Shown piece by piece: positions 1 through 24,600 of a stretch of DNA of 45,795 nt. The DNA is from Nanobdellota archaeon (GTDB lineage Archaea > Nanobdellota > Nanobdellia > Woesearchaeales > JAGWAF01): contig JBBSWF010000063.1 in NCBI GenBank assembly GCA_038046365.1, positions 1 to 45,795 of the forward strand, read 5' to 3'. Made by a program: the position numbers and the translations under genes. Below the pieces are notes generated by a model. It did not search any database. It was not told the DNA's origin and was given only the letters and a program-made list of their open reading frames with translations. Position 1 is the stretch's first letter. Each line of letters begins with the position of its first letter.

Positions 1-48
1 TTTCTGTCCGAGAAAATATATATTCAAGAAGCTAGATCGACTTTATAG

Positions 49-1137
49 TTACAATTTTTCTCGGTTGACTCCGTTTTTTGTCGTGGTCAGACCGTCGCGA
101 AGTGCCTGATTGCAGCTACACTCCGAATCGGCGTTGTAAGCTGGGACATTGTTGCGGTTTGAGTTGGTGTCCTGACAAATCTGGGCGATGTTCACGTTGT
201 TCGTGATACGCTCGGGAAGAGAGAGGATCAGCTCCGCAGTGGTGTATAGCCAGGCGACGCCTGTGTGTTCGCCATGGGCTAGACCCCTTCTTGTGAGCTC
301 TTCTGAATCTCTAAGGTGCTCGTAAATGAATCCTTGGATGGTGTGTTTCTTCCTGTTCAAAGGTAGGATAGTATAATGATCTGGCTTTAATGAATCAAGC
401 CATTCGATTGTCGAAGAGAACAATTGCTTTGATTGGGTTTCTGTAAGGCCGGGCATGCCTATGATGACGTCAGGGTCGGATCGAAGGCCGTTTTCGCGCA
501 GCAGTTTGATGGCCCGCTCTATGTGATGGTTGGTGACGCCTTTGTTCAGCCAGTGATTTCGTATCCATTCATCTCCAACTTCAACGCCAAACTCGATGGT
601 TCCCTGGGCTTTTCTGAAATAGGTGCGGAATTCCTTTAATTTTTCGGCAGTTATCTCGGGGGCTCGTCCTTCAACGACATAGACAACCGGATCATCGCTT
701 AATATTCTGCTGTTGTATACAGCCTGTCTTGCGCGCTTTGGCATCGTGACTTCATCAAAAGTGTCAAGTGCCGTGATTAGTTCGACAGGGTTAGGATTTG
801 CGCGTTCTCCTCGCGCGTTGGTGACAGTGCGTCGCAAGGCTTGAGCATACGCATCAGGTGCCTTGGTGCGGATAGTTTCCATGATGGCTTCGCCACGCGC
901 TTGTGTTTCTGAATAGTCGCAAAACCCGCAGCCGCCGGTCTTTTGCCGATAACGGCATGGTACTGGGAGAATAGTCAAGCCTATGTTCCCGCTTTCGTAT
1001 CGGTAATATGCCGCCGTGACATCGCTCGCCTCTTGGATTAGGGTTTCTATTGGCATTGCGCCATACTTCTTGGCAAGAGATGCAAATTGACTTGATTGAT
1101 CTTTTCTCATTTCCTTCAAAAATTGAGTGATGAACAT
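49..1137 (-). CDS. Radical SAM protein, TIGR01210/RaSEA-like (Elp3/MiaB-type), atypical CX8CX2C motif
   Basis: CRYRQKTGGCGFC cluster motif. The segment ITAEKLKEF..IEFGVEVGDEWIRNHWLNKG..IERAIKLLRENG..IIGMPGLTE resembles the archaeal TIGR01210/RaSEA core. Starts 1 nt after the nitroreductase stop. Confidence 0.85.
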   Translation of the reverse strand: MFITQFLKEMRKDQSSQFASLAKKYGAMPIETLIQEASDVTAAYYRYESGNIGLTILPVPCRYRQKTGGCGFCDYSETQARGEAIMETIRTKAPDAYAQALRRTVTNARGERANPNPVELITALDTFDEVTMPKRARQAVYNSRILSDDPVVYVVEGRAPEITAEKLKEFRTYFRKAQGTIEFGVEVGDEWIRNHWLNKGVTNHHIERAIKLLRENGLRSDPDVIIGMPGLTETQSKQLFSSTIEWLDSLKPDHYTILPLNRKKHTIQGFIYEHLRDSEELTRRGLAHGEHTGVAWLYTTAELILSLPERITNNVNIAQICQDTNSNRNNVPAYNADSECSCNQALRDGLTTTKNGVNREKL

Positions 1138-1138
1138 T

Positions 1139-1786
1139 TTACTCGAACCTCACTTTTTCGTCGATGGGTTCCCTGATTTTTCGCGGCCAGCCGATCTTCA
1201 AACCGCACATGAGGTCGTACTTTTCTCTGTCGACATTAAGCCACGAATAGATCTCTGGATTGATGCCTGGGAGCAGCACATCGCCGCAAATGCAGCTTCC
1301 AAGGCCGAGGCTGTGTGCAGCCAGGCTCATGTTCTGTAAAGAACACCCTATGCTCATGATGTCTGTCAGGGAATAATTGCTGACTTGTGGGATTTCTTCA
1401 CTATTGGCAGCGTGGTAGCGTTTATCGGCTAGGACTGATTTGGTTTTTTCAAAGAACACTACGATGAAGGCTTTCGGGATCCAGGCTTCGATGTCTTCAC
1501 CACGATAGTTCTTGAGGCTGTCTCCCTCGGGTCTTGTTAGCAGCTTTGCGCTCATGACCTTGTCGATCATGGCAGGGTTGGTGATTACGACAAAATGCCA
1601 TGGTTGAAGGTTCTTGGCGCTGGGTGCAAAATGGCCTGCTTCTATTACTTTTAATAGCAAGTCCTTGGGGATCTCCTTGTTTTGATCATAGAAACGTACC
1701 GTCCGCCGTTCTTTTATGGCGGTGAGTACCTCGTTGGCTACAGGGCTAGATTCTTGAAACGCTTCTTTTGTTTCGGTTGTTGCCAT
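1139..1786 (-). CDS. Nitroreductase-family flavoprotein
   Basis: IKERRTVRFY, APSAKNLQPWHFVVI and QNMSLAAHSLGLGSC motifs; GGTGA SD upstream. Confidence 0.93.
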   Translation of the reverse strand: MATTETKEAFQESSPVANEVLTAIKERRTVRFYDQNKEIPKDLLLKVIEAGHFAPSAKNLQPWHFVVITNPAMIDKVMSAKLLTRPEGDSLKNYRGEDIEAWIPKAFIVVFFEKTKSVLADKRYHAANSEEIPQVSNYSLTDIMSIGCSLQNMSLAAHSLGLGSCICGDVLLPGINPEIYSWLNVDREKYDLMCGLKIGWPRKIREPIDEKVRFE

Positions 1787-1812
1787 GTTATTTCACCGCG
1801 TTTATTACTAAC

Positions 1813-1935
1813 TTAGTAGATTCCTCCTTGCGACTCTCCAGCTCGTATGAGGTCAGATCGTGCGTTCCCGCATGATACAAGGAATGTCTTTCCGGTCACG
1901 GCGTCTGTCGCTTCGATGGTTGTGGTTTGGTTCAT
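1813..1935 (-). CDS. 40-aa peptide MNQTTTIEATDAVTGKTFLVSCGNARSDLIRAGESQGGIY, candidate RiPP precursor (not in ORF track)
   Basis: Translated by hand. Strong GAGGTGA SD 6 nt upstream of the ATG; first gene of the peptide-nitroreductase-rSAM unit. Confidence 0.75.
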   Translation of the reverse strand: MNQTTTIEATDAVTGKTFLVSCGNARSDLIRAGESQGGIY

Positions 1936-2061
1936 TCTCAATCACCTCATTATTGATTAACTATAACTACTACCTAGTGGTATCTTAGCTTATTATATCT
2001 TTATACAAATTTACTCGATATTTTCGAAATATTTATAATAAAACTCGAGATATTAGAATAA

Positions 2062-2544
2062 ATGAAGCCCGCAAAGGAGTACCTCGACGCAAAGGACAGG
2101 CAGATCCTGCTGGAGCTTCAAAAAGACGGCCGTGAGAGCCTGACAAACATAGCCAAGAAGATCAACGTCGCAATCGACACTGTGAAAGCCCGCATCGAGC
2201 GCCTCGAGAAAGAGAAGATCATCGTTGAGATCAAGCCCTGGGTCGACCCAAGGAACCTGGGATATCCCTTGGTCGCTGACGTCAAGATAAAGCTTCACAA
2301 CAACGATGCCAAGCAGACCGATGATATGATCGCCTACCTAGTGAAGCACCCAAGGGTCATCGAGGTCATCACTATAATGGGAGATTACGATCTTACAGCG
2401 ATCATCATCGCCAAAGACACCGACGACCTAGGACGGGTGTCGCAAGAGATCAGGCACAAATTCAACCACATAATCGCGGACTGGAGCTCCTTCCTGACAC
2501 TCAAGATCCATAAATTCGAGCAGTATGATTACGCTATGCTGTGA
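2062..2544 (+). CDS. Lrp/AsnC family transcriptional regulator
   Basis: LDAKDRQILLELQKDGRESLTNIAKKI HTH and C-terminal RAM domain (IMGDYDL); divergent from the peptide operon. Confidence 0.95.
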   Translation: MKPAKEYLDAKDRQILLELQKDGRESLTNIAKKINVAIDTVKARIERLEKEKIIVEIKPWVDPRNLGYPLVADVKIKLHNNDAKQTDDMIAYLVKHPRVIEVITIMGDYDLTAIIIAKDTDDLGRVSQEIRHKFNHIIADWSSFLTLKIHKFEQYDYAML

Positions 2545-2734: not shown

Positions 2735-2893
2735 TTAGAAGCGCTTGGGCTTGTGCTTCGGGAAGCACTCACGGCAGTACACTGGCCTATCGCCTGATGG
2801 CTTAAAAGGCACTTCGCACTCTTTGCCGCAGTCTGAACATGTGGCCTTGCTCATTTCGCGTGGGCCGCCGAAACTTCTGTCTTGGAATCCCAT
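2735..2893 (-). CDS. CxxC-x17-CxxC domain small Zn-binding protein, 52 aa (not in ORF track)
   Basis: MGFQDRSFGGPREMSKATCSDCGKECEVPFKPSGDRPVYCRECFPKHKPKRF; GAGGTGA SD upstream. Confidence 0.93.
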   Translation of the reverse strand: MGFQDRSFGGPREMSKATCSDCGKECEVPFKPSGDRPVYCRECFPKHKPKRF

Positions 2894-10927: not shown

Positions 10928-11601
10928 CTTGGCGTCACCACTTCTGTTTTTGCAGTCGTCATGCGGTCCTTGTTCCCATCGCGTACAAGCACTGCGAGCG
11001 TCCTCTCGACTAAGTCAGCGCCTCCCTTTCCTTTGAGGCGGGTCTTTGCTATAGCAGAATAATCGTCATAGACTGCCTTGTTGTAGTACGCAGTCGAGTC
11101 TCCGATTGTTATCTTCGCTCCAATCGGAGAATCAGTGTACATGATGCGTCCGTCTAGGTATTTCGGGTCTTTTGAAGCGAGTGCCAGTTTCTGCGAGTCT
11201 ATCACTCCAGTTGGCGCCGCCTGCGTCGCAGTGTCGAAATATCCTAGCCCTTCTGGCGAGAACAGCGCCTTTGTTACCATCAAGTCTGATTGTATCTCTA
11301 CAGTGTTGATGCTGTCCGCTAAAAACACGCCCACGAGCGCCGGGGGGATTACTAGTGCTAGCGCGATGAGTATCACGCGCAGGAACACTGCGGTGGTCTG
11401 CACGCTGATCAGCCCTCTTTTCGTATTTGTATAGCGCCCTAAGGTCGAAATCCGCTTGTCTATAGACGCTGGCGCGTTGCGGGGGTTGCCCCATACGGGG
11501 CGCAGCGCCCGCGATGTTCCCGTCAAGGATTTCGAAGGCGCTATACAAATACCTCTTTTCGAATCGAGGATGGTGCCCGGCCGCTGTTTTGGAGGTCTCA
11601 T
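10924..11601 (-). CDS. Class III signal peptide (pilin-like) protein with a long basic leader
   Basis: TNTKRG|LISVQTTAVFLRVILIALALVI after about 60 basic residues; ATGA coupling on both sides. Confidence 0.7.
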   Translation of the reverse strand: MRPPKQRPGTILDSKRGICIAPSKSLTGTSRALRPVWGNPRNAPASIDKRISTLGRYTNTKRGLISVQTTAVFLRVILIALALVIPPALVGVFLADSINTVEIQSDLMVTKALFSPEGLGYFDTATQAAPTGVIDSQKLALASKDPKYLDGRIMYTDSPIGAKITIGDSTAYYNKAVYDDYSAIAKTRLKGKGGADLVERTLAVLVRDGNKDRMTTAKTEVVTPR

Positions 11602-12728
11602 TTTCCAGTCATCGCGTTCGCGATCTGCCTCCCGATCTCTTGTTCGTGTCCGGTTATTGGGTTCTTCTCGCTTGGCAAGTCTATGCCGTTTAGTTCCAGT
11701 TTGACTCCGACAGCGGGCCTATCAAGCATTTGGTCTTCCTCAAGTGTGTTGTCTAGTGTAGTGTCGATAGATACTATGTTCCCCCCGATGAAGACTGCTT
11801 CGCCGCTTTTCTTGTATTCTAGTATCGCGCTAATTAGAGTGCATGCTAGCTTCTCGCTCTCGGTTCGTGTCTTCTCGTCATTTTTGATGTATGCTGTGAT
11901 GCTGGCTTGTCCGGGGATCTTTGATTTGTGCGCGTGCACGCTCACTAGCGCTGCGTTCTGGCTCACTCGCTCAAGCCGTGCCTTCATCTCAAGTGCGGTG
12001 TTGTCCGGTCTTGTCAGCGCTGCTGTGCTTCCAGATCCTTTCATGTTCGCCGCGGCAGAAAGCGCGATCTTTGTCGTTATCTCGGATTCTATGGTTTTCC
12101 CGATCGTTGTCTCTGCTTGCGCCCCTGTGTCTCCTGCTCCTGCCACTCCTCCGTGTCCAGGGTCGATTATCACTTGTAGCGACGAGATGTCTGGGTTGGA
12201 TGGGCATCGCAGCCGATTGAGCAAAACAAGCCCTTGCGCGGGGTTTGTGGGATCTTGTTTGTCTCTCACTGTGATGAAGTTGTCATCTTTGATGATTAAT
12301 ATTGGGCTATTGATTGGGATTTCTTTGGCTGTAAATGGCAGTCTTGTGTCGATTGCGTAGGTCGCTTTCTCTTCCACTATAGTCTCGGCTCCTATTCCAG
12401 GTTCTTTCGGTTTCTCGTTTGATGCTGCAATGGCTTGTCCGTTCTCGAGCCGCTGCCGGAAGGCTGAATAAGGGAGTGTCATCATGTAGCTTGATCCAGG
12501 TATAGTGGCTGCAGTGGCGGTCAGTGACAGGTCTATCGCTGATTTCATCCTGTCGAATCGCGTATCGCTTGCGATCCTGGCTGCGTACTGCAAGAGGGCG
12601 ACCCATATCACTACAAGGACTATGGTCCATATGAGGTAGTAGGTCATTAGTTCTACGTCTCCTTTCTTGGATTTAAGAAGCCTGGATGGTAGCGATGACG
12701 CCATTGATGTTTTATTCCGATTCTTCAT
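11598..12728 (-). CDS. Pilin-like protein with N-acetylmuramoyl-L-alanine amidase (Amidase_3) domain
   Basis: KSKKG|DVELMTYYLIWTIVLVVIW; VIIDPGHGG, IESEIT, ALVSVHAH and VKLEL give the H-E-H Zn ligands plus the catalytic Glu. Confidence 0.85.
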   Translation of the reverse strand: MKNRNKTSMASSLPSRLLKSKKGDVELMTYYLIWTIVLVVIWVALLQYAARIASDTRFDRMKSAIDLSLTATAATIPGSSYMMTLPYSAFRQRLENGQAIAASNEKPKEPGIGAETIVEEKATYAIDTRLPFTAKEIPINSPILIIKDDNFITVRDKQDPTNPAQGLVLLNRLRCPSNPDISSLQVIIDPGHGGVAGAGDTGAQAETTIGKTIESEITTKIALSAAANMKGSGSTAALTRPDNTALEMKARLERVSQNAALVSVHAHKSKIPGQASITAYIKNDEKTRTESEKLACTLISAILEYKKSGEAVFIGGNIVSIDTTLDNTLEEDQMLDRPAVGVKLELNGIDLPSEKNPITGHEQEIGRQIANAMTGK

Positions 12729-12764
12729 GTTTCAGCCTGTTTCAATCGAGTTTTAGCGAGTGAG

Positions 12765-14831
12765 TCAAGGCGCGCTGCATGCAGTCGGGTATTCTGCTCT
12801 GTGCTCGCTCGCGCGCTTGCTTCCGATTTCGTAATGCCAGTATTCTTCTGTCCATCTGACAAAGCCTGCTTGACACATGACTGCTTCGAGTTGTTTGCGG
12901 TTTGTGTTTCCCATGTCTGATAGTCCTTCCCGCCCCATGTCTTCGCCTCTGAAGCGGACGTCGAGCGCCCGTCCGGTCACATGCGGCGCTGCGCAGCTTG
13001 GCGCTGCTGCTGGCGGTCCCATTCCGTTCTTGTGCGCGTCAAATAGCGCTTGCTGCCGCTCGATCGTGCGGTACGCGCTCGTTATCTCTAAGGTCTTCCC
13101 GGACCTCATGGCGATCTCTTGCGCTTTTTGGAATGCGAACACGACGTCCGGGTCTGCCACGCATCTTTTCTCGTCGAGCAGGTTCTGGGTGCAGGCTTCT
13201 TTTGGCAGCACTGCAAGTGTTGGTGTCGGACAGGTCGTCCCTGGCTTGACTTGGCTGCAAATGTCGAAGATGTCTGCTTCTGCGAGTTTGTCTGTGCATA
13301 TTCTGTTGATCTCGTCGTCTGCAGTCAGTCTTCTTCCGTCGCTCATAGTCTGCTCTGCTGGCGTGAACCTCAATTTGGCCTGCTGATATGTTGATAGCGC
13401 GTCCCTGACCAGCCCTTTCTTCTCTTGCAGTCCAGCTAGGATGAATCTTGCTTCGCGACTTTGGTCGTTGTCCGGGCTGCCTTGTGCGAATTCTGTGAGG
13501 AGTTTGATCGCTTCAGGGTCGTTCTTTTCTGCCGCTTGTTTCGCTCGAAGGAACGCGGCTGGAAGTGATGCTCCTTTAACGCTCTCCGCTTCTTTCAAAA
13601 AGTATGGCAGTAGGTTGTCTTTGATCTCCGGGAAGTAGTTCTGGAGTTTCTGGCTAAGGTCAAGTCCGCCTAGCACGGCGCGAGACTGCAAGTCTTGCAT
13701 TGAGACAGTTGTGTCTGCGCTTCGTTTGACGTATTCGTTTGTCGCTTTGTAGGATTTGACTGCGTAGAGTCCGGCGGTCTTGTCAGCTTGGTCGGGGTTA
13801 GGGGTGGTTATTGCTAGTTTCTCAAGTAAGATGCCTGCATCGCGGTATCCTATCTCACTCATCTTCTGGAATGCCTTTGATTGAAGGATGAGCATCGTGG
13901 CAGTCTCTATTGGTTTCGTGTTTGTCCCTGCTCTTTTCTCAAGCCATGTCTTGGAGTCGATTATCGTTCCGGTGAGATCTCCGCTGTCAAGCTTTGCCTG
14001 GACAGTGGGTATGGTGATGCCAAGCAGTGCCCGTAGCTCTTTCATTCTTTTGCTGCTTGCCTCTGATGCTGGGGAGACAGTGATATGGCTAGCTCCGTTG
14101 ATGGTGATTCTTTCCAGGTATAGCGGCCCGTTTTTGTACAGGGAAGATACTGACTGTTGGTAGAGCAGTGATTCCCCGCAGTTTGTGAGGTCTCCGTGCA
14201 TCATAAACAGGTAGTCGGTTGCTTGTAGCTCTGCAGCCAGGCCTTTTATTTCATGGATATTCTCCCGGATAGCTCCGAGGTTGTTGCCATATGTTGTCTC
14301 GGTCCTGCCGCTGATGTCGCTTCCGCCTTGCCTTGCTTCCTTAATCGAGCTGATCGTAGATACCCCGCCTATCTTCTTGCAAAGTTTCAGGCCTTTTGCT
14401 TGTTCTTCTGCAGACTCTCCAGGTGTTGGGTTCATCGATGAGTCGTATATGCATATGCAGGCCTTGCTTGCGCACTCAACCGGTTTCTTTCGCGCACCTA
14501 GGCATCCTGCGCCTTTTGTCTTGATTCCCTGCCCTCCTGTGTCAAATCCGATTAGGTAGTATTTCCCGTCGCTCATGGTGTATGGGAATTTCTCGACAGT
14601 CGCATATGGCTCGCTCTTCGCCGCCAGCCGGGCGAGTTCAGCTCCTAGCGAGTTGAAGCTGTCTGTGGCTGTCTGTTCAGTCCCCCCGCCGAACAAAAAC
14701 GGCCCAAAGTTGTAGATCACTGTGCTTGCTGTGACTAGCGCTATGGCTGCAAGTATCAAGCCTACTAGTTCCTGTGGCACCATCGCCTTGATCCCTTTAG
14801 CTCCTGCAAGAGCGACTCTCCGTCGTGGCAT
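12765..14831 (-). CDS. Pilin-like protein with TPR-like region and C-terminal M15 (VanY/VanX-like) peptidase domain
   Basis: KGIKA|MVPQELVGLILAAIAL (Glu at +5); ITSAYRTIERQQALF, HVTGRALD and EEYWHY. Confidence 0.85.
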   Translation of the reverse strand: MPRRRVALAGAKGIKAMVPQELVGLILAAIALVTASTVIYNFGPFLFGGGTEQTATDSFNSLGAELARLAAKSEPYATVEKFPYTMSDGKYYLIGFDTGGQGIKTKGAGCLGARKKPVECASKACICIYDSSMNPTPGESAEEQAKGLKLCKKIGGVSTISSIKEARQGGSDISGRTETTYGNNLGAIRENIHEIKGLAAELQATDYLFMMHGDLTNCGESLLYQQSVSSLYKNGPLYLERITINGASHITVSPASEASSKRMKELRALLGITIPTVQAKLDSGDLTGTIIDSKTWLEKRAGTNTKPIETATMLILQSKAFQKMSEIGYRDAGILLEKLAITTPNPDQADKTAGLYAVKSYKATNEYVKRSADTTVSMQDLQSRAVLGGLDLSQKLQNYFPEIKDNLLPYFLKEAESVKGASLPAAFLRAKQAAEKNDPEAIKLLTEFAQGSPDNDQSREARFILAGLQEKKGLVRDALSTYQQAKLRFTPAEQTMSDGRRLTADDEINRICTDKLAEADIFDICSQVKPGTTCPTPTLAVLPKEACTQNLLDEKRCVADPDVVFAFQKAQEIAMRSGKTLEITSAYRTIERQQALFDAHKNGMGPPAAAPSCAAPHVTGRALDVRFRGEDMGREGLSDMGNTNRKQLEAVMCQAGFVRWTEEYWHYEIGSKRASEHRAEYPTACSAP

Positions 14832-14951: not shown

Positions 14952-15518
14952 CTATTTATTCAGTCGTTCCTGAACCAAGAACCAATATAAAAACAACTCT
15001 TTTTCCATATTTTGATGATCTTTGTACTTTTCTTTGATAATCTTCCAGAATAGTTCATTGTGCTTTCTTTCTTTTAGATGAGCAATTTCATGATAAACCA
15101 CATAATCAATCAAATGCACAGGCAAGTATCTTAACAAACTATTAACCATCAAATTTTTGCTAGAACTACAGCTTGCCCATTTAGATTTCATTTCCTTGAA
15201 ATAGACTTTGTTTACTTTTAAATGCAAGATGTGAAGATTTTCCTCAATTATGGAATGAACAAGCGCTTTGAACTCTTCTTGAGTTCTATTGATGTTTAAC
15301 TTTTTATTTTTGCTTGCTTTGAGAGAATTAAGTATCTCTTTGTGTTTCTTGTAAATCCATTCTTTATGAGTTTCAATAATTTTCTTTTCTGATTCATAGT
15401 TTTTTGGAAGAATGAGCATGAGATTGCCTGTTTTAAACTCTAAACGAGGATAATGAACTGGTCGATAGTTCACTGCATATTCAACATCCAGGTCGTAGAT
15501 TTTAATCTTCTTTTGCAT
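14952..15518 (-). CDS. YgjP/DUF45 (M48-like) metallopeptidase associated with type I RM
   Basis: MKSKWASCS and DYVVYHEIAHLKERKHNELFW; directly after hsdR. Confidence 0.92.
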   Translation of the reverse strand: MQKKIKIYDLDVEYAVNYRPVHYPRLEFKTGNLMLILPKNYESEKKIIETHKEWIYKKHKEILNSLKASKNKKLNINRTQEEFKALVHSIIEENLHILHLKVNKVYFKEMKSKWASCSSSKNLMVNSLLRYLPVHLIDYVVYHEIAHLKERKHNELFWKIIKEKYKDHQNMEKELFLYWFLVQERLNK

Positions 15519-18500
15519 AGGCTTTCACCCTATCCATGAGTTTATCGAATAAAACATTAAGGTCGTCAATCCTTAAACTGTGACGTTTAAGATATCGCCT
15601 TATGAATATCCTTACCGTCTTTTCGACTTCTTTTTGTGCTGTTGGCTGAGATATCCATCCCGCAAAGAGTAATTCATTCAATGAAATTGACAGTTCTCTT
15701 ATATCCTCAATTAATTCTACATCCTCCCCAAACTTATCTTCAAGAACAAGTAGCAACGAATAATCCAATTTACTTAATTTTAGCTCTTTTTGCCTTTGCG
15801 AGAGTTGCATGAATTCTTTGATTACTTTAACTCCTTCTTGGTATATTTTCTCATAGTCTTTTGTTTTTTCTTTCCACAAATAAAGAAGCCTCTGAACTTT
15901 CTCGCTAAGACTTTCCGAGACGGGGTTTTTAAATTTGTCAACGAGAACGAATCGGTTTAAAGTAAAGACTATGTTTGCTGCTTTTTCTTCTTTGTTCTTT
16001 ACATGCTGCTCAAGTTTTCTGAAATAGTCTTCATCAAATTCAATTATGGGAAGAGACTTCTGGATTTCTTCAAGCTCAGTTGTTTTGTGAATGTACTTTA
16101 TGGTTTTCTTGAAATATTGTTCTAAGTATCTATTGTCTTTTGGTTGACTTCTCAGAACAAGTCGCGTATAGTAGGTATAAATTGCGCTTATCCACTGATA
16201 TTCTGAGAAGAGTTCTGCTTTTATTGTGTCAGGACCAAGCAACTCAAATATTTTTGTCATGTGCTTGTAGTCTTCTATGAATGCCCTGCTTTTTTCTTCA
16301 TTTGAAGTGAGTATCTCCATAGCTTTTAGCAGAGTTTTACGATCATATTGGCTTTTTGGAACCTCTTTGAAGATGTCTAAGATTTGGTTCATCAATTTTA
16401 CAAAGTCCTTCCTGATTTCCTCAATGCTAAAGAGTGCACCGTTTATCTCTTCTTTGCTATAAATTTCAAACGCTCTCCTGAATTCTTTTAAAATTCCGAT
16501 ATAGTCCAGAATCAATCCTGCTTCTTTGACATCTTTATATGGTCTGTTTGTTCTGGCTATTGCTTGCAACAGCTTGTGCTCTTTCAATGGTTTGTCTAAG
16601 TACATTGTTTGAAGTACTGGAGCGTCAAAACCAGTCAAGAGCATATCAGTCACAATAATAATCTTTGGCGAGTCTTCTTCCTTGAATTTTTCAATAACAT
16701 CTTTTCGAATATCTTCATACTCCTTGCCATATTGAGCAGTTTCTTCTTTGACATACATAGCAATCCTGTCGGGCTCATCCCGTGCGCCATAACTAAACAC
16801 AATATCAGAATATTCTTCAGGAAGATACTTGTCAAGCTCTTTTTTGTACAGAACACAAGATTCCCTGTTTACCGCAACAACCATTGCCTTGAATTTACCA
16901 TCAACATTTTCTTTGAAATGCTCAGCGATATCCTTTGCTACTTTTGCAATTCTTTGAGGATTCTCAAGATACGCCTTTAGCAAGCTAATTTTCTTCTTAA
17001 CATCCTCTTTAACAACTTCTCTTGCGTCTTCTGGAATTTCTTCATACTCAACTTCCAAAAATGTATCAAGCATCTCTTTATTCAAATGAACTTCTCTTTC
17101 AAGTCGCGGTTGATATGCTATTTTTACAGTAAATCCATCGTTAATGGAGTCTGTAATGAAATACTTGTCAAGGTACTTCTCTTCTGGAGGATAACTGAAC
17201 ACATCATATGTGTCAACACCTTTCTTAGGCTTTGAAATGGGTGTGCCTGTAAATGCAAAAAAGAATGTGTTCTTGAGTATGGCCCTCATTTGAGCTGCTA
17301 ACGTGCCATATTGTGTCCTGTGGCCTTCATCTACGAATGCGACAACATTCTTCCTCGTAAGAATTGTTTCTTTATCTGTTGAGATTTTCTCAAGCTCTTT
17401 TTGAAGCACATGAAGTTCTTCAGCTCGAAATTTGTGAATGAGCGTGATGAAAATACCTCTCTTACCTCTCCCTTGATCGTGCTGAAGAACTTTCCTCATG
17501 CCGCTAACCGAACCAATAAGTTCTGGAAGAGTCATATCCAGAGCATTAAACTCATCATAAAGCTGTTCCTCTAAATCCTGCCTATCGATAATGAGGAATA
17601 TTGTTGGGTTAGCCATTGCCTCAGAGCGGTATAGCTTGTTTGCTGCAAAAATCATTTCTAAAGTCTTTCCAGAACCTTGCCAGTGCCAGACCAGACCTTT
17701 ATTTTTTTCTTCTTTGCCTTCAATATTATTGATGACTCTCTGAACGACTTTGCCTACTGCCCGATATTGCATGTATCTGGGAAGAACCTTTGTGGCTTCT
17801 CCAAACTGAACCCTGACATAAACAAAGTTATTGATGACATCAAGCAGTGTTTCTGGAATAAACAACTGAATAACTGAGTCTATGGAGTCAAGTTTTTCTG
17901 ATTTCCATTCATCTATCTTCACGTTTTCATTCCAGGAAACAATTGGGAAATACTTGGCTATTTGTTCTGCAGCAACACCTATCTGTACATATTTGTAGAG
18001 CTCAGGAATATCTTGTTCGTAACTTTTGATTTGTTTGAATGCGTCATACCAGTTTTCTGAGAAACTCGCTGGATTCTTGCACTCAATATCTACTAACGGA
18101 ATGCCATTAACATACAGAAAGATATCCGTTCGTATTTGCTTGTTGCCTCTCGTGTAAACGGCCTGTCTTGTGACAATAAACTCGTTATTTTGGACATTGT
18201 CATAATCAAAAAGCCTGATTCTCTTGAGCGTTTTATCCTTTTCAATCTTGATGGAGATGCCTTCTTTTAAGTAAAGAAGTATCTGTTTTATACCCTCCTG
18301 AGTGCTTGGCTTAAACCTGAGTTCATTGAGTAAATTTTTAATATCCTCGTCGCTCAGATCAATAGGATTGATAGCTTTTACTTGCCTGATTAAATTCCTA
18401 ATTAAAAGTGGTTCTTCAAAATTGTCTCTGTCTAATGCATTTCCTGGGATGAAAGTCCATCCTTTACTTTGAAGTTGTTCAGTAATATAGTCTTCCACAA

Positions 18501-18525
18501 CTGATTTTTTGTTAAAGCGAGGCAT
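15502..18525 (-). CDS. hsdR: Type I restriction endonuclease subunit R
   Basis: DIFLYVNGIPLVDIECK nuclease motif, WHWQGSGKT, DEGHR, FTGTP, DMLLTGFDAP and QAIARTNR. Confidence 0.97.
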   Translation of the reverse strand: MPRFNKKSVVEDYITEQLQSKGWTFIPGNALDRDNFEEPLLIRNLIRQVKAINPIDLSDEDIKNLLNELRFKPSTQEGIKQILLYLKEGISIKIEKDKTLKRIRLFDYDNVQNNEFIVTRQAVYTRGNKQIRTDIFLYVNGIPLVDIECKNPASFSENWYDAFKQIKSYEQDIPELYKYVQIGVAAEQIAKYFPIVSWNENVKIDEWKSEKLDSIDSVIQLFIPETLLDVINNFVYVRVQFGEATKVLPRYMQYRAVGKVVQRVINNIEGKEEKNKGLVWHWQGSGKTLEMIFAANKLYRSEAMANPTIFLIIDRQDLEEQLYDEFNALDMTLPELIGSVSGMRKVLQHDQGRGKRGIFITLIHKFRAEELHVLQKELEKISTDKETILTRKNVVAFVDEGHRTQYGTLAAQMRAILKNTFFFAFTGTPISKPKKGVDTYDVFSYPPEEKYLDKYFITDSINDGFTVKIAYQPRLEREVHLNKEMLDTFLEVEYEEIPEDAREVVKEDVKKKISLLKAYLENPQRIAKVAKDIAEHFKENVDGKFKAMVVAVNRESCVLYKKELDKYLPEEYSDIVFSYGARDEPDRIAMYVKEETAQYGKEYEDIRKDVIEKFKEEDSPKIIIVTDMLLTGFDAPVLQTMYLDKPLKEHKLLQAIARTNRPYKDVKEAGLILDYIGILKEFRRAFEIYSKEEINGALFSIEEIRKDFVKLMNQILDIFKEVPKSQYDRKTLLKAMEILTSNEEKSRAFIEDYKHMTKIFELLGPDTIKAELFSEYQWISAIYTYYTRLVLRSQPKDNRYLEQYFKKTIKYIHKTTELEEIQKSLPIIEFDEDYFRKLEQHVKNKEEKAANIVFTLNRFVLVDKFKNPVSESLSEKVQRLLYLWKEKTKDYEKIYQEGVKVIKEFMQLSQRQKELKLSKLDYSLLLVLEDKFGEDVELIEDIRELSISLNELLFAGWISQPTAQKEVEKTVRIFIRRYLKRHSLRIDDLNVLFDKLMDRVKAYAKED

Positions 18526-19054
18526 TTTTTATCATCCTTTGTTTTTTATGATATTCTAGCCAGTGATTGTACATATCACCATGTTCTTTGCTTTTCCTTG
18601 ATGTTACAAAACCGAATACATGTTCTAGATAATCCCTGTCCATTTTGAAATTCGCTTTGTCTTTTAATCCTAAATGTTCTATTATCTCTTTATCTGATGA
18701 ACCACCATCTCTCAGTTCTCTCGCTATCTTCATAATATCGTTTTGATTATATTTTGAATGTTTGTATAGATCAACCACTCCAGTTATCTCACAGCCCATA
18801 CCTGAGTGTTTTATCAGATTGCACATTTGGCAAATTACTTGAAAGTTCTCATCGCTGTTATTCTCTGGGTCGCCATCAATGTGATCGACAATTTGGTATT
18901 TTTCTAAGCGAAATTCACAGTAAGCGCAAGTGTAGTTATCTCTATTAAGGAATTTTAATCTCATTTTCTGCCATGCTTCTCCTTTAAGGTTCAGAGCTTG
19001 CAGGGGGTTTCTCCATTTTGCAGATGGAGCGAAGGATAAAATGAGTGGTTTCAT
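18512..19054 (-). CDS. HNH endonuclease
   Basis: RDNYTCAYC..VDHIDGDPENNSDENFQVICQMCN. Confidence 0.88.
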   Translation of the reverse strand: MKPLILSFAPSAKWRNPLQALNLKGEAWQKMRLKFLNRDNYTCAYCEFRLEKYQIVDHIDGDPENNSDENFQVICQMCNLIKHSGMGCEITGVVDLYKHSKYNQNDIMKIARELRDGGSSDKEIIEHLGLKDKANFKMDRDYLEHVFGFVTSRKSKEHGDMYNHWLEYHKKQRMIKNASL

Positions 19055-19548
19055 TGTTTTCCTCCGGTTCTCAGTTCCTCATATATATCTTCCAAAGTGT
19101 CCTTATGACCCCACCCTTCACAACTTCGCTCAATAATGGAGTCAAGTCTTGATTTAAACTCAGGTATCAATTTCTCATTATCATTCAGGATTTTAACAAT
19201 CTGTTCAAACATGGATTCCATACTTGAATAAAACGATTCATACATGTCGCCGTATTTTTCTCCAATTTTAACTCCAATCTCAACATAGAATGTCATCAAC
19301 TCCAAAAGGTGCTCTGGCTGTTTTGATATTCTCTTAAAATCAGAAATGACTTTTCTTGCCTCACGAAGATTTATTCTTTCGTTCCAAAGGATATTTCTTA
19401 ATTTTTTCTTATAATACGCGATTGCATCTTCTGGGTTTTTCTCAAGTTTAAGCCTCAAAAAGTCTGCGTTTTCTTTGTTTAGGCTGGATAGCTCAAGCAG
19501 AAGTGAATACAATTCTTCTTTTCCGAGTTTTTTGAGCGTTTGGTTCAT
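19051..19548 (-). CDS. Conserved helical hypothetical protein (DUF6155-like)
   Basis: LREARKVISDFKR..LELMTFYVE..YGDMYESFYSSMESMF..GWGH; family recalled from memory. Confidence 0.6.
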   Translation of the reverse strand: MNQTLKKLGKEELYSLLLELSSLNKENADFLRLKLEKNPEDAIAYYKKKLRNILWNERINLREARKVISDFKRISKQPEHLLELMTFYVEIGVKIGEKYGDMYESFYSSMESMFEQIVKILNDNEKLIPEFKSRLDSIIERSCEGWGHKDTLEDIYEELRTGGKQ

Positions 19549-19581
19549 TTTCCTTTTAATCGTGCGATCTTTTCGTACACT

Positions 19582-20424
19582 TCATTCCAGTTTCCTTTTG
19601 GGTTTATCTGCAAGCGTTTTCTCATCCTTTTTTACCTTTCTTTCAAGTTTCTTGAGGTCTTCTTCTGCAGGAAGCTCTTCTGGTTTTATTCCTCTTTGCA
19701 CAAGGAGATTTCGTACATCTGTATTATTTCTTATATGCTCATTTGTGATATTGCTTTCCCCTTGCAAGTCATCTCTTTTTACATTAAAATTAGTTATTTC
19801 AGTGGCAAGATTCTTAGCTGTTATAGTTATTGTTGGTAGGAAGTCTGCCATCGCCCTGTTTTTTGGGATGCTCAGTTTAGTTTTCATTTGCAGGGTTGTT
19901 TTACCACCGAATAGGGCTGCATCTCCCTTACTTCTTATTCTGGCAAATCCGTCATCATCAACACCTCGCTCATAAATAAGTTTAGATAACTCAGTTTCGG
20001 ATGCTGTTAACTTTTTGCGAGCTTCCAATCTTTCTATTAGGGCTATGCGTTCTTCTATTAGTTCTTGCTTTCGTGTCTGGACAGCAAAATAGCTTTGGGC
20101 AAATGCGATTTCCTCTTTTCTTGGGTCTCCATTCTGTGCGATAAGGTAGCAAGCATATCTGGTAAGCATGAAATCCTCAATTTCCCGCTCTGCTCCAGAT
20201 CCTAAATCGACCTTTTTCCCGACCTCGGGAAAATGGTCTGCTACCGAATATCCTGAGTTTTTACAGGCTTCTTTTGCTCTTTGGATAACCTTAACAAAGT
20301 TCTCCCATTTAGAATAACCTAGTAAACCTTGTAAATCCCTTGCAAGCCAGAACTCAATACCTTCTTTTTCATAGGCATAATCTTCAAAAGACTTCCTCAA
20401 TATGGATATGATTTCTTTTTTCAT
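19582..20424 (-). CDS. dinD: DNA damage-inducible protein D
   Basis: FWLARDLQGLLGYSKWENF, LTRYACYLIAQNGDPRKEEIAFAQSYFAVQTRKQE and IRSKGDAALFGG. Confidence 0.92.
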   Translation of the reverse strand: MKKEIISILRKSFEDYAYEKEGIEFWLARDLQGLLGYSKWENFVKVIQRAKEACKNSGYSVADHFPEVGKKVDLGSGAEREIEDFMLTRYACYLIAQNGDPRKEEIAFAQSYFAVQTRKQELIEERIALIERLEARKKLTASETELSKLIYERGVDDDGFARIRSKGDAALFGGKTTLQMKTKLSIPKNRAMADFLPTITITAKNLATEITNFNVKRDDLQGESNITNEHIRNNTDVRNLLVQRGIKPEELPAEEDLKKLERKVKKDEKTLADKPKRKLE

Positions 20425-20768
20425 GTAAGTGCCCCCATAACATTATGTAAACACTTACATAGGCCATTTATCTGCACAAGCATTTTCAAACCGTGACGAT
20501 TTGTAACGGTTTCAGATTGAACCTTTTTGTTGATGCCAGCAAAATGGTCAGGGAGCTCAGCAGACACTGCCAACTGTACGATTTTATCGTACAGTTCAAA
20601 TCCTTCTGCTGAAAGCTTAGTTTTCAGATCAGACCAGTACCTTTTAGGGATTGTACTGGTTTCTAAGGCATTGATTACATCGACAACAGAGAAATACCAC
20701 TCATTTTCGTGCCAAACTCTCCTTATTTTCTTGTCTTGGAAGACAACCAAAGCATTGTGATCAGTCAT
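20421..20768 (-). pseudogene. Truncated or mosaic Bro-N domain gene
   Basis: IRRVWHENEWYFSVVDVI..YWSDLK Bro-N start, followed by a scrambled C-terminus containing DinD-like DHFAGINKKV and Bro-like ETVTNRHGLKM. Confidence 0.65.
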
Positions 20769-21259
20769 TTTGTTTCCTCCGCCTGTAATTGATAGCCTTT
20801 AATTTTGAATAAATTATTCTTTTTTAACCATGAGATGACTGTATTTAATGGATTATTCCAATGATTTTCAAAATAGGGATGTGCCACAGAGGTTTCTTTA
20901 TTATTCATAAGAATGCTATTATTTGGTTTATTTTTCTGCGTTCTTTTTTTGTAGAACAGAAGACCGTGCGCCCAAGAGTTTCTATCAGGGTTCAATTGAT
21001 TTAGCGCTTGAACGAACTCATAGAAGTTTTTAGTGTCATTAAGCCTGTTTTCTGTTAATTTTTGTATAAACAAATCCTTCATTTGTCCGTATGTTTTTCT
21101 GCTTTTTGTTTCACCACAATATTGTTTCATGATGAGCTCTATAATCGACATACAATGGATAATTCTGCCCCTTAACTCATGAACTTTCTTTAAGTCTAGG
21201 ACATCTTTTTCTGACTCTCTGCCAGATTTCCCCTTAAGTATTAAGATTTCAGTTACCAT
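20765..21259 (-). CDS. Putative HEPN-domain protein
   Basis: Helical protein with RNSWAH (Rx4H) and an N-terminal IIE helix. Confidence 0.5.
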   Translation of the reverse strand: MVTEILILKGKSGRESEKDVLDLKKVHELRGRIIHCMSIIELIMKQYCGETKSRKTYGQMKDLFIQKLTENRLNDTKNFYEFVQALNQLNPDRNSWAHGLLFYKKRTQKNKPNNSILMNNKETSVAHPYFENHWNNPLNTVISWLKKNNLFKIKGYQLQAEETK

Positions 21260-21263
21260 TTAT

Positions 21264-22478
21264 TTATGTCACCTTCACTCTTTTCTTGCCTGTCAAAAGA
21301 TCATTCATCAGGCTTTTCTTTATTTTTTCAAGTTTTGATTTTTTGGATTGTTGGAGTGAGAGTTTTTTGTCTACTGTTGAAAGGATATCTGCGACCCGTC
21401 TTTGCTCAGAGAGAGGCGGGAGGGCTATTTCATAATCTTCTATAAACTTTATCGGAACTCTTTTTTGACCAGCACTCCCAACCATGCTTTGCTCTCCTTT
21501 TTTTCTAAATCTTGAAGAACTAATCACATAGAATATCCATTCTGGGAGAACCTTTTCTCCTGATCGTAGAACATGGAATTCTGTTGTTCCGAATCCTATT
21601 TGATGCTTAAGCTCCTTAGCTAATGCTCTTTTTCCATTCTCAAAGCATGGTGTAATTTTAGCTATGAGAACATCTCCTTCTCTGAAGTAAGTAAATCCTT
21701 TATTGGCATTCTTCAACAACTTTGCTTGTTTAGATATAATAATTCCATCTTCCGAAATAGAAGCCATGGGGAGAAAAGAAACTTCTGAATTTTCATCTAA
21801 ATGAGATATTTCTTTCTTAGATGGATTGATAATACAAACATCTTTCATTCTCACAAGAGGCCACTTCTTCCCATCGAACAGCTCCTTCATGAGGGCCACC
21901 TTGAGCCGTTCGACTCGCTGACTCTCTCTCTCTACGATGTCAAGACGGGCGTCGACTGTTGAGAGGACTTCTGCTATTGAGGTTTGTTCATTGATAGGGG
22001 GAAGTTGAATCTCTAAATTGTCAACAAGAAATTTGCTTAAATTCGGTTGTCCTGTTCCTTGAGTAGAGTTTACGAGTTTATTTGTTTTTGACGATAACAA
22101 ATAATACATGAATCTATAATTGAATTTACCTTTATTGTTAGGTATAGCGAGAACAGCTTGATTTGCAGTTCCTTTTACTCTGAGGATGCCGACTTTACCA
22201 GCAGTTGCTCCATACATTGCAACTAATACCGTATTTTCTGGGATCTGTTTTGCACTGCTATTTTTTAGTCCAGACTCAGTTATTTTCTCTTCCGTATCAA
22301 ATATTTCCCCCAAATTCACTTCACCAGATTTAACCCATCGAATATTGCCTCCATAATACTCTTTATTTGATCTTAAAGGAGTACCTCCAGCATAAGTGTC
22401 TGAAACTTCTCCTAACTTGATAACATCCCATTCTTTAGGAATCAATCCTATTTCAGTTTGTTTTAGTTTTTGCTTCAT
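21264..22478 (-). CDS. hsdS: Type I restriction-modification specificity subunit S
   Basis: Two TRDs (GGTP..WVKSGE; AKITPCFENGK) with LPPINEQ/LPPLSEQ conserved regions and LMNDLLTGK end. Confidence 0.96.
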   Translation of the reverse strand: MKQKLKQTEIGLIPKEWDVIKLGEVSDTYAGGTPLRSNKEYYGGNIRWVKSGEVNLGEIFDTEEKITESGLKNSSAKQIPENTVLVAMYGATAGKVGILRVKGTANQAVLAIPNNKGKFNYRFMYYLLSSKTNKLVNSTQGTGQPNLSKFLVDNLEIQLPPINEQTSIAEVLSTVDARLDIVERESQRVERLKVALMKELFDGKKWPLVRMKDVCIINPSKKEISHLDENSEVSFLPMASISEDGIIISKQAKLLKNANKGFTYFREGDVLIAKITPCFENGKRALAKELKHQIGFGTTEFHVLRSGEKVLPEWIFYVISSSRFRKKGEQSMVGSAGQKRVPIKFIEDYEIALPPLSEQRRVADILSTVDKKLSLQQSKKSKLEKIKKSLMNDLLTGKKRVKVT

Positions 22479-23323
22479 TTTACACTCGGTAAACGTAAAA
22501 TTTTGAGATTATCAGAGAAAATCATTAGTTCATTGCCTTGTTTCTGTTTTCCTGCACTATATGGCAATGGATAACGGCGTTTTTTACTGTTATCGTATAA
22601 CTTTCTAATTAAGTTCGCATCATCATAAGTAATTATCCATTTTTGTTTCTTATTTTTAATAATCTCTTTAGCTATATTTTGGTGGTCTACATCCCTATAA
22701 TAGTTCATATACAATTCCTTTCCTTTGTTATAGTATGGGGGATCAAGATAAATCAGTGTATTTTTAGGCAATCGTACTCTAAGTTTTCTTATTAACTCTA
22801 CAGCATCCACATTGAATAATTCTATTTTGTCTTTGTATTGAGAAATTTTCTTAATACGTTCAATTAATTCTTCTTTCTTATATCTTGCACTAATAGTCCA
22901 CTTTCCTTGTTGTTTTTTTCCCCCTATCACTCCAGCATTTATTATTCCAGATCGGTTTGTCCTATTTAAGAAAAATGTAGAAAATCCTAATTCTAAAAGA
23001 GGGACGTCTTCTTTTTTTCTTTGTATCTTCTTTTGCTCTTCCCAAACATTCAAATTAACCGGAGTTATTTCAATTAACCGACATAGTTCATCAGCATGAT
23101 TTAATACAGTATACCAAAAAGCATAGATGGATCTGTCTTTATCATTAATGATTACTTTTGACGCATATCCTTCAAGTAGAAGTGATAATGCAATTGAAGC
23201 CCCTCCAACATAAGGCTCAACATATATTGCTCCCTGAAGAGAGTTTTTTTTAAACAATTCCTTGAAGTAATTGGCCAGTTTCCCTTTTCCACCAGGATAT
23301 CTTAAAGGAGAGTAGAACGTCAT
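22475..23323 (-). CDS. DNA adenine methyltransferase (Dam/D12 class)
   Basis: SPLRYPGGK, YVEPYVGGAS and YLDPPYY. Confidence 0.95.
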   Translation of the reverse strand: MTFYSPLRYPGGKGKLANYFKELFKKNSLQGAIYVEPYVGGASIALSLLLEGYASKVIINDKDRSIYAFWYTVLNHADELCRLIEITPVNLNVWEEQKKIQRKKEDVPLLELGFSTFFLNRTNRSGIINAGVIGGKKQQGKWTISARYKKEELIERIKKISQYKDKIELFNVDAVELIRKLRVRLPKNTLIYLDPPYYNKGKELYMNYYRDVDHQNIAKEIIKNKKQKWIITYDDANLIRKLYDNSKKRRYPLPYSAGKQKQGNELMIFSDNLKILRLPSVK

Positions 23324-24600
23324 TTGTTTTTCCTTCCATGAGTTATTTCTAACATTTTTCCTACAATAACAGACATTGCAAGTGTCTGCTCGATATTGGA
23401 AGATGAAGAGTAACTATGGCCGCCTGTATGCAGCAAACTGAGAAGTTTAGTATCAGTATTGATCTCTTGTGTACTTAGATTTGTTTTCTGATCTTGACTT
23501 AATTTATTTTTGGCGTTTAAAAAATTTGATTTGATATAATTGTCAATCGACTCTTTGTTTTTCCCATCGGTTGCAGATTCCACCAATAATCTTAATGCCA
23601 TTCTGATTAGGTTCGGAAAGGTATTGGAGAGTTTCTCTTTGTTCCTTTCAAAGTACTGATGTAGATCTCCGACATCTCTATATAGATCATTAGTTACTCC
23701 ATCTTTCAAAGATAGTGCCCCTCCAAAAAGCAATTCTTTCATCTTATTTTGGCGTTGTGTTCTTTTAATTTGAGAGGCAGAACTTTCTTTTACGTAAGTT
23801 ACTCTTCTGGAATTATCGTCTTTGTATGGTTTTATCTTATCTTTAAGTTCAGAGATGCTTGTTAAAGGAGTTTTAATATCATACTTGTTGTCTCCTCTAG
23901 AACTAATTGTCCCCTTTACTTTTAAATTGGCTAAATTATCTAAAATACTCTTTGCTGTATTTTCATCGTAAACTGACAAGAAATTACCATTTTTGTCAAA
24001 TAAGAATCCGATTTCTTTTAGCTTATTCTCAGTTAAAATGTTATTTTTCATTATGTTCTCATTTAGCTCAGGATGTTGACTAATCAATCCTGTTGCTTCT
24101 TCAAATTTCAAGAACAAGCTCTTTTCTTTTCCTCTGAAATTATGTTCGAAATAGTCTCTTTCAAGTTGTTTCCAAGTTCCATTACTCACATGCTTTCTCT
24201 CTATGTTTATCAAAGCAGTACTTTTGTCACAAATATTGCAAGGTATTTTTGATAATCCTTTCAAGTGAGGGGGCTCCTTAGAGGGAAATAACTTCCCTTC
24301 AATTTGGTGTGCCCAGTCTTGGTTTTGTAAGTATTTCAGAATGGCAATTCTTCTGTTTCCATCGTAAACAATGTATTTATTGTTTTCAAGAACCACAGTG
24401 GGTAATTCACTAAAATCATAATGAGTTCCCATTGTCTCTATAAACTTAGAAATGTTCCATTTTTTTGAGTCGTCCTTAATAGCTCGTTTTATTATTTCCA
24501 AATCTCCAATATCTGACTCAATGGGATCTCTTGGATTTTCACTCCATAAATGAAGTTCAGAAACTTCAATTTCTTTAATTTCTTGTTTTGGTTCTTTCAT
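23320..24600 (-). CDS. ParB/Srx-like N-terminal domain protein coupled to the Dam methylase
   Basis: LWSENPR and YIVYDGNRRIAILK ParB-like motifs; helical C-terminus (RMALRLLVE..LHTGGH); ATGA overlaps with hsdM and the MTase. Confidence 0.7.
   Translation of the reverse strand: MKEPKQEIKEIEVSELHLWSENPRDPIESDIGDLEIIKRAIKDDSKKWNISKFIETMGTHYDFSELPTVVLENNKYIVYDGNRRIAILKYLQNQDWAHQIEGKLFPSKEPPHLKGLSKIPCNICDKSTALINIERKHVSNGTWKQLERDYFEHNFRGKEKSLFLKFEEATGLISQHPELNENIMKNNILTENKLKEIGFLFDKNGNFLSVYDENTAKSILDNLANLKVKGTISSRGDNKYDIKTPLTSISELKDKIKPYKDDNSRRVTYVKESSASQIKRTQRQNKMKELLFGGALSLKDGVTNDLYRDVGDLHQYFERNKEKLSNTFPNLIRMALRLLVESATDGKNKESIDNYIKSNFLNAKNKLSQDQKTNLSTQEINTDTKLLSLLHTGGHSYSSSSNIEQTLAMSVIVGKMLEITHGRKNK

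Follow-up and report, generated by a model that had tools for sequence, protein, structure and literature searches.

What do a 40-residue peptide, a nitroreductase-fold flavoprotein and a radical S-adenosylmethionine (radical SAM) enzyme do when one archaeal operon encodes all three? The question is raised by contig JBBSWF010000063.1 (assembly GCA_038046365.1) of a Nanobdellota archaeon, a stretch of 45,795 nt that is called the window in this study. An initial annotation had read the left end of this contig as a candidate pathway for a peptide that is made on the ribosome and modified after translation (RiPP). Our analysis shows that the peptide open reading frame (ORF) behaves as a real gene at the head of a tightly coupled three-gene operon, and that the radical SAM gene of this operon, which was probably acquired from bacteria, is broken in this genome by an insertion sequence (IS). 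A RiPP-like role of the cassette is plausible but unproven, and we weigh it here against its alternatives.

Results

A peptide gene at the head of a three-gene operon

Window positions 1-2000 hold three tightly packed ORFs on the minus strand, which encode the peptide, the nitroreductase-fold protein and the radical SAM enzyme (Table 1). The peptide ORF (1935..1813, minus strand; MNQTTT...SCGNARSDLIRAGESQGGIY) encodes 40 residues from its ATG and would encode 42 from a TTG at 1941, an unlikely start that lies inside the motif GAGGTGAT. That the peptide heads the operon, with GAGGTGAT 6 nt before its ATG, is borne out by the sequence, and the ORFs and Pfam matches confirm the flavoprotein and the CX8CX2C radical SAM enzyme behind it and the divergent Lrp-type gene on its other side. 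The Shine-Dalgarno sequence had also been described as strong. The 8-mer occurs twice in the window against 1.8 expected and as a motif alone is not above chance; its weight is its place before a conserved ORF. The other two genes are coupled in a similar way. A GGTGA precedes the nitroreductase ATG by 6 nt, and the radical SAM ORF, with GAGGT 9 nt upstream of its start at 1137, begins 1 nt after the nitroreductase stop.

A word-index search of 5.8 billion clustered proteins returned a sole relative of the peptide, P0013, which is also 40 residues long and identical at 37 of the 40 positions; the three differences, V20I, L29I and I39L, are all conservative. P0013 is encoded on a 6561-base contig, and since the same 6561 bases are recorded for the contigs of a nitroreductase (P0015) and a radical SAM protein (P0002), the three appear to share one contig. 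In this lineage the nitroreductase is 89% and the radical SAM protein 82% identical to the window proteins. A profile search of 1.84 billion representatives found no further peptide, only the peptide's own cluster and a 779-residue repeat protein, and an Atlas search with the peptide gave no usable match. Neither Pfam nor NCBIfam contains a family that the peptide matches, and Rfam shows no RNA family in window 1700-2100. We also simulated neutral drift over the 123 bases of the gene. For divergences of 13%, 16% and 20%, the frame was kept with at most three residue changes in fractions of 0.0017, 1e-4 and 2e-5 of cases, respectively; the divergence assumed for the P0013 lineage is an estimate, for which the proportion of synonymous differences in the radical SAM gene between the window and its closest metagenome relative, locus L027 (pS 0.34), serves as a comparison. 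Because the ORF has the same length in its relative, differs by three conservative changes only and is improbable under drift, its conservation argues that it is a selected gene. The peptide had been described as uncalled, which does not hold: it is already on record in NCBI and ENA as the 40-residue predicted protein P0134, encoded on a contig of 45,795 bases, and the gene has been predicted on two independent contigs.

A further observation concerns the repeat protein (P0135, 779 residues), which has no Pfam family. Residues 6-31 of the peptide, with the core TDAVTGKTFLVSCGNARSDLIR, resemble the last strands of each of its three repeats, the best of which is identical to the peptide at 13 of 22 positions (E 8e-5 for the whole library). 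This likeness could reflect a shared beta-hairpin motif or chance.

An insertion sequence in the radical SAM gene

The radical SAM ORF in the window has 362 residues, compared with 424-447 in its relatives, and the DNA homology to L027 (629 of 720 bases identical) ends abruptly at window base 53. The 52 bases beyond that point recur at 14 places in the archaeon's own genome (G000) with 100% or 98% identity, and all but one of these copies lie within three bases of a contig start or at the highest matched coordinates of a contig. Four public runs, which belong to four groundwater studies (X6, X9, X10 and X11), also contain this stretch. In X6, X9 and X10, window 1-52 forms one end of a 1667-base record with a depth of 77-136 against about 5 for the flank, and in X11 it lies inside a 2739-base record with a depth of 37.8. 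The missing C-terminal part of the gene, approximately 77 codons, was found at the end of another contig (G000:C170:7444-7632; E 4.4e-25), where it is preceded by the other end of the IS, with the same 14-base inverted repeat and the same 8 bases, GAAAAATT. This octamer occurs once in the uninterrupted gene of L027, as ...CGAGAAAAATTAGCC... The element thus shows inverted terminal repeats, an 8-bp target duplication and many copies, and a relative keeps the target uninterrupted. All of this marks the break as a classical IS insertion, and the stop codon at 49-51 comes from the IS. The element itself is about 1.67 kb long and multi-copy, reaches 15-25 times the depth of single-copy flanks and interrupts the assembly at no fewer than 14 places; the parts of it covered by the analysis showed no transposase. 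All four runs carry the same strain, with no other letters and no peptide variant.

The initial annotation had suggested that the operon may continue to the left of the window. What lies there is the IS, and the rest of the radical SAM gene is on contig C170. In L027 a convergent gene similar to replication factor A lies 50 bases past the radical SAM stop codon. The same gene follows the end of the radical SAM gene on C170, where it stands behind an extra 66-residue ORF and a VapB/PIN pair. Since this gene follows in both places, the cassette consists of three genes and does not continue leftward. The extra ORF (L050 1265-1465, minus strand) is absent from L027 and has no family match, and its GGTGA overlaps the radical SAM stop; the VapB/PIN toxin-antitoxin pair (L050 862-1101 and 473-865, minus strand) is an insertion on C170 relative to L027.

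Over 239 codons shared by the window and L027, the radical SAM gene shows a ratio of nonsynonymous to synonymous change (dN/dS) of 0.15, with a dS of 0.46. The gene has therefore been under purifying selection and was functional until recently, and the break is recent. What the break removed can be judged from the intact relative P0002, for which an AlphaFold2 model built from an alignment of 28 sequences (mean pLDDT, the predicted local distance difference test, 92.3) shows three confident helices at residues 359-429. His291, Cys340, Cys342 and Cys374 are all present in 18 of the 28 family members; the three cysteines are all absent in eight, and two members have one. This co-varying pattern fits a four-ligand metal site. 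Because the truncated enzyme has lost about 77 residues, including Cys374, a putative ligand that lies past the break, it is probably inactive, and so probably is the pathway in this strain. Four bacterial loci (L010, L014, L038 and L043) each carry two tandem radical SAM paralogues. A copy without the whole His/Cys3 site occurs in L010, L038 and L043, in the last of these in both copies, and one copy in L014 keeps a single cysteine, with His291 not aligned.

The radical SAM enzyme belongs to a rare family

The cluster motif of the enzyme is C61-X8-C70-X2-C73, and its cysteines are invariant in all relatives. PF04055 matches at 27.3 bits (E 4.8e-6), just under its cut-off of 29.5 bits; the three-cysteine motif, the barrel and the P0002 model (pLDDT 92) with its matches to radical SAM enzymes place the protein in this superfamily. 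The C-terminal part is helical in the model. A resemblance to TIGR01210, the RaSEA family, had been noted earlier. This is indeed the best curated family (E 3.6e-15), but the likeness is weak, at 56 bits against a cut-off of 212.15 bits. Both proteins have the same kind of radical SAM core with an extended cysteine spacing before the CX2C, whereas the cassette enzyme has about 120 extra residues with the His/Cys3 site and a different gene context. Among solved sequences, queuine lyase 6p78 comes closest (profile E 0.018), and a GxCSxCDY motif is common to both; the closest folds are Elp3, MgmA, TsrM, lysine 2,3-aminomutase and 6p78. Queuine lyase is similar in sequence and Elp3 in fold, but identity is 12-18%, and these enzymes act on nucleosides or tRNA and have no peptide or flavoprotein partner. 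The core of the cassette enzyme is Elp3/RaSEA/queuine-lyase-like, and its clade is rare and has no characterised member.

The initial annotation had also pointed to a separate RaSEA with ArcS in this genome as a matter to be checked. RaSEA acts in complex with ArcS on preQ0-Lys15 of tRNA (PMC11298593). In the archaeon's own genome, which is 86% complete, neither PF17884/DUF5591 (ArcS) nor TIGR00432 (ArcTGT) was found; the controls matched, although in a genome of this completeness such absence is not proof. A genome-wide search with TIGR01210 gave 55.6 bits for the cassette locus and 97.6 bits for the best locus, both under the cut-off, so that another TIGR01210-like gene does exist but lacks both a qualifying score and an ArcS companion. 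It lies at G000:C118:14282-15022 (L001 1501-2352, minus strand), encodes 283 residues with a CX3CX2C motif and adjoins a gene for an ABC transporter ATPase.

Only 12 protein matches to this radical SAM family were found in a large collection. Among 185,579 species genomes 11 loci of the family were found, all in Bacillota. A further 23 loci come from metagenomes, and those examined are of bacterial type in their context, except L027. No orthologue occurs in 60 genomes related to that of the window, where the best match reaches 27 bits. In the bacterial loci a small phosphopantetheine carrier protein is encoded directly upstream of the radical SAM gene, as Pfam confirms for L004 and L006 and sequence likeness alone suggests for L005, L033 and L035. 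Other neighbours are condensation, adenylation and thioesterase domains, BtrH_N, a phosphopantetheinyl transferase, a pyridoxal phosphate (PLP) decarboxylase, a glyoxalase and B12-radical SAM genes. The enzymes of these nonribosomal peptide synthetase (NRPS)-type clusters (L004-L014 and L028-L048) are 26-40% identical to the archaeal one and keep the same invariant residues; their genes, however, follow a carrier protein in company with adenylation, condensation and thioesterase domains, and have neither the 40-residue peptide nor a close nitroreductase beside them. In a quick maximum-likelihood tree the window protein, L027 and P0002 form one group (support 100), which is joined by P0003 (support 100) within Bacillota rows; the outgroup branch of this tree is very long and its root unsure. 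On these relationships, the archaeon probably acquired the gene from bacteria. The trio of peptide, nitroreductase and radical SAM enzyme is confined to one narrow lineage.

The flavoprotein

Membership of the second protein in the nitroreductase superfamily is clear, with 96.3 bits for PF00881 against a gathering threshold of 23.5. Its predicted model (pLDDT 75) matches small flavin mononucleotide (FMN) nitroreductases of anaerobes in Foldseek (E 1e-12), with cyclodipeptide oxidase as a slightly lower fold match. Close kin are limited to P0015 (89%), P0016 (85%), P0017 (48%) and P0018 (53%), and the next relatives reach 37% at most. A scan of species genomes with this clade returned generic kin alone, with 24-36% identity across most of the length.

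Surroundings of the cassette and the host

The divergent intergenic region may serve as promoter for both transcription units, as its TATA-like stretches suggest, and the Lrp/AsnC-family regulator would be linked to the operon by its position. A near-palindromic stretch of 39 bases within the promoter region (window 2016-2054) is found again, with seven mismatches, in runs X9 and X10 on other contigs; it may represent a shared module for regulator binding or promoter function. Just past the Lrp gene, window 2735-2893 encodes on the minus strand a treble-clef zinc-finger protein of 52 residues (PF23477, E 2.5e-20). The operon does not stand out in GC content, and PADLOC defence-system models gave zero matches among the three cassette proteins.

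Elsewhere the window is accessory in character: it carries a type I restriction-modification system, a D12 methylase, PIN/MazE pairs, murein hydrolases and numerous ORFs that have no family. In window 11598-14831 and 15502-26363 of this archaeal contig, genes of the peptidoglycan hydrolase type (Amidase_3; VanY/Peptidase_M15) stand beside a type I restriction-modification system that is complete and has an additional D12 methylase, and beside DUF6155 and Bro-N genes.

The best matches of the replication-factor-A-like neighbour (48-55%) are in metagenome-assembled genomes of Woesearchaeota and Nanoarchaeota, related genomes measure 0.6-2.7 Mb, and sequences of this organism occur in groundwater metagenomes. 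The host is a Woesearchaeota-like DPANN archaeon of groundwater.

Table 1. Features at the left end of the window and what identifies them
Feature	Position	Strand	Basis
IS end, last 52 bases of the multi-copy IS; terminal inverted repeat GTAACTATAAAGTC at 52..39, minus strand	1..52		Recurrence in the genome, read depth
Radical SAM gene, 5' part, 362 codons, C61-X8-C70-X2-C73, stop from the IS	49..1137	-	PF04055, TIGR01210, relatives
Target-site duplication GAAAAATT (minus-strand reading)	53..60	-	Same 8 bases beside the other IS end on G000:C170
Nitroreductase-superfamily flavoprotein, 215 aa	1139..1786	-	PF00881, 96 bits
40-aa peptide gene	1813..1935	-	P0013, 37/40 identical; neutral simulation
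Shine-Dalgarno-like GAGGTGAT	1941..1948	-	Sequence reading; 6 nt before the peptide ATG
Divergent intergenic region, A+T-rich, 113 bases, TATA-like stretches for both transcription units	1949..2061		Sequence reading
Lrp/AsnC-family regulator	2062..2544	+	PF13404, E 2.6e-13; PF01037, E 1.4e-8

Discussion

The main finding from this study is that a transferred radical SAM enzyme appears to have been coupled, in one archaeal lineage, to a flavoprotein and a small conserved peptide. Because the peptide gene stands first in the operon and is conserved, the peptide is the likeliest candidate for the substrate of the two enzymes or for a ribosomal carrier. In bacteria a small carrier protein stands directly ahead of the radical SAM gene, which likewise favours this reading. 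We propose that the radical SAM enzyme would abstract hydrogen from the C-terminal part of the peptide, either at its G-G-I/L-Y end or at Cys22, and that the flavoprotein, encoded between the two, would perform a redox step. Known pathways offer a partial precedent. In the mycofactocin (MftA/MftC) and pyrroloquinoline quinone (PqqA/PqqE) systems, the first gene of an operon that also encodes a radical SAM enzyme and a redox enzyme specifies a short peptide with ...G-x-Y at its C terminus; MftC and PqqE belong to the SPASM enzymes and work with an RRE/PqqD partner. The cassette resembles these systems in the C-terminal G-x-Y of the peptide and in an operon order with the peptide first. In contrast to them, it has no SPASM domain or RRE, its flavoprotein is of the nitroreductase fold, and none of their defining domains is present. 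The peptide matches no precursor model in NCBIfam, and no mycofactocin model is among the NCBIfam matches of the radical SAM enzyme. A complex prediction of P0002 (alignment A5) with the peptide scored 0.01, which speaks neither for nor against the pairing. We hold a RiPP-like role of the cassette only tentatively, as a plausible and unproven reading that falls somewhat short of being the expected one.

Several results weigh against such a role. Neither SPASM nor RRE was detected in the radical SAM enzyme, as the initial annotation had also noted, nor was a twitch domain: PF04055 is the only Pfam match, and the listed Foldseek matches include no SPASM enzyme. The solved or curated relatives of its core act on nucleosides or tRNA (RaSEA, MnmL/YtqA, queuine lyase and Elp3), and its Bacillota homologues are found in NRPS-type clusters with carrier proteins and are not RiPP-linked. 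The absence of the peptide from homologous loci had been named by the initial annotation as an outcome that speaks against its proposal, and this is what we found: when the nitroreductase, the peptide and the Lrp protein were compared by tblastn with 34 loci of radical SAM homologues (300 kb), none of them showed a peptide match, and one weak nitroreductase match of 46 residues was the only other result. Only one close relative has the peptide, too few to judge whether the GxY terminus, which the initial annotation had proposed to look for, is conserved across a family; with two peptide sequences known, no pattern of leader and core can be read from them. Nor does the flavoprotein favour the idea that it works as a peptide dehydrogenase. 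It shares with SagB/McbC proteins of the thiazole/oxazole-modified microcin (TOMM) type a nitroreductase fold and a place beside a short peptide gene, but it scores 17.5 bits with TIGR03605 against a cut-off of 78.4, is nearest to generic FMN nitroreductases and is accompanied by neither YcaO nor a cyclodehydratase; it is a generic nitroreductase and not one of the SagB/McbC peptide-dehydrogenase type. Finally, the IS breaks the cassette in this genome, and the contigs of the four runs yielded no allele free of it; since contigs lose rare variants, this does not prove that the insertion is fixed.

Another explanation is that the flavoprotein and the radical SAM enzyme act on a small molecule or on a nucleoside or RNA, and that the peptide is an accessory protein, such as a subunit, a regulator or a chaperone, instead of a substrate. 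This possibility must be taken seriously, and we consider it nearly as likely as the RiPP-like role, because no peptide-recognition domain was detected in the radical SAM enzyme, because its bacterial kin belong to small-molecule clusters with NRPS, carrier protein and PLP decarboxylase genes, and because the nearest curated or solved relatives of its core (TIGR01210, TIGR01212, 6p78 and Elp3) use nucleosides or tRNA. Against it stand the conservation of the peptide, which is at least as high as that of the enzymes, and its place as the first gene of the operon. Moreover, the archaeal locus has no carrier protein or NRPS gene, and no archaeosine genes were found in the genome.

In a variant of the RiPP-like role, the peptide would be a ribosomally made carrier or scaffold in place of the phosphopantetheinyl carrier protein of these bacterial clusters, and its C-terminal residue would be the site where the radical SAM enzyme and the flavoprotein assemble a small product. 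We regard this as unlikely, though worth stating for its consequence: if true, it would represent a new class of scaffold peptide or RiPP, and the first in DPANN archaea.

Much less probable is that the 40-residue ORF is no gene at all but a chance frame in the 5' leader of a nitroreductase-radical SAM operon. The ORF is short, has no family match and has only one relative, which are what a chance frame would show; its equal length and three conservative changes in that relative, so improbable under drift, the ideal distance of GAGGTGAT from its ATG, its prediction as a gene on two independent contigs and the lack of an Rfam RNA match in the region all argue otherwise. That the radical SAM enzyme is the archaeon's RaSEA in archaeosine synthesis, or a direct functional equivalent, can be dismissed as the least credible explanation, since TIGR01210 is its best NCBIfam match but at a score far below the cut-off, ArcS and ArcTGT were not found in the genome at 86% completeness, no orthologue occurs in the 60 related genomes, its kin are bacterial genes of NRPS-type clusters and it groups apart from the other TIGR01210-like gene of the genome.

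In summary, the case for a RiPP-like cassette rests on one lineage, and the copy described here is broken, so that what it offers is a starting point for enzymology on relatives with an intact cassette. Should the peptide be the substrate, these relatives would contain a peptide-modifying radical SAM enzyme of an uncharacterised clade that works without the usual RRE and SPASM domains, and their pathway would belong to DPANN archaea, from which very few natural-product pathways are known. Through the bacterial relatives encoded beside carrier proteins, carrier-bound and peptide-bound chemistry could then be compared directly within one enzyme family.

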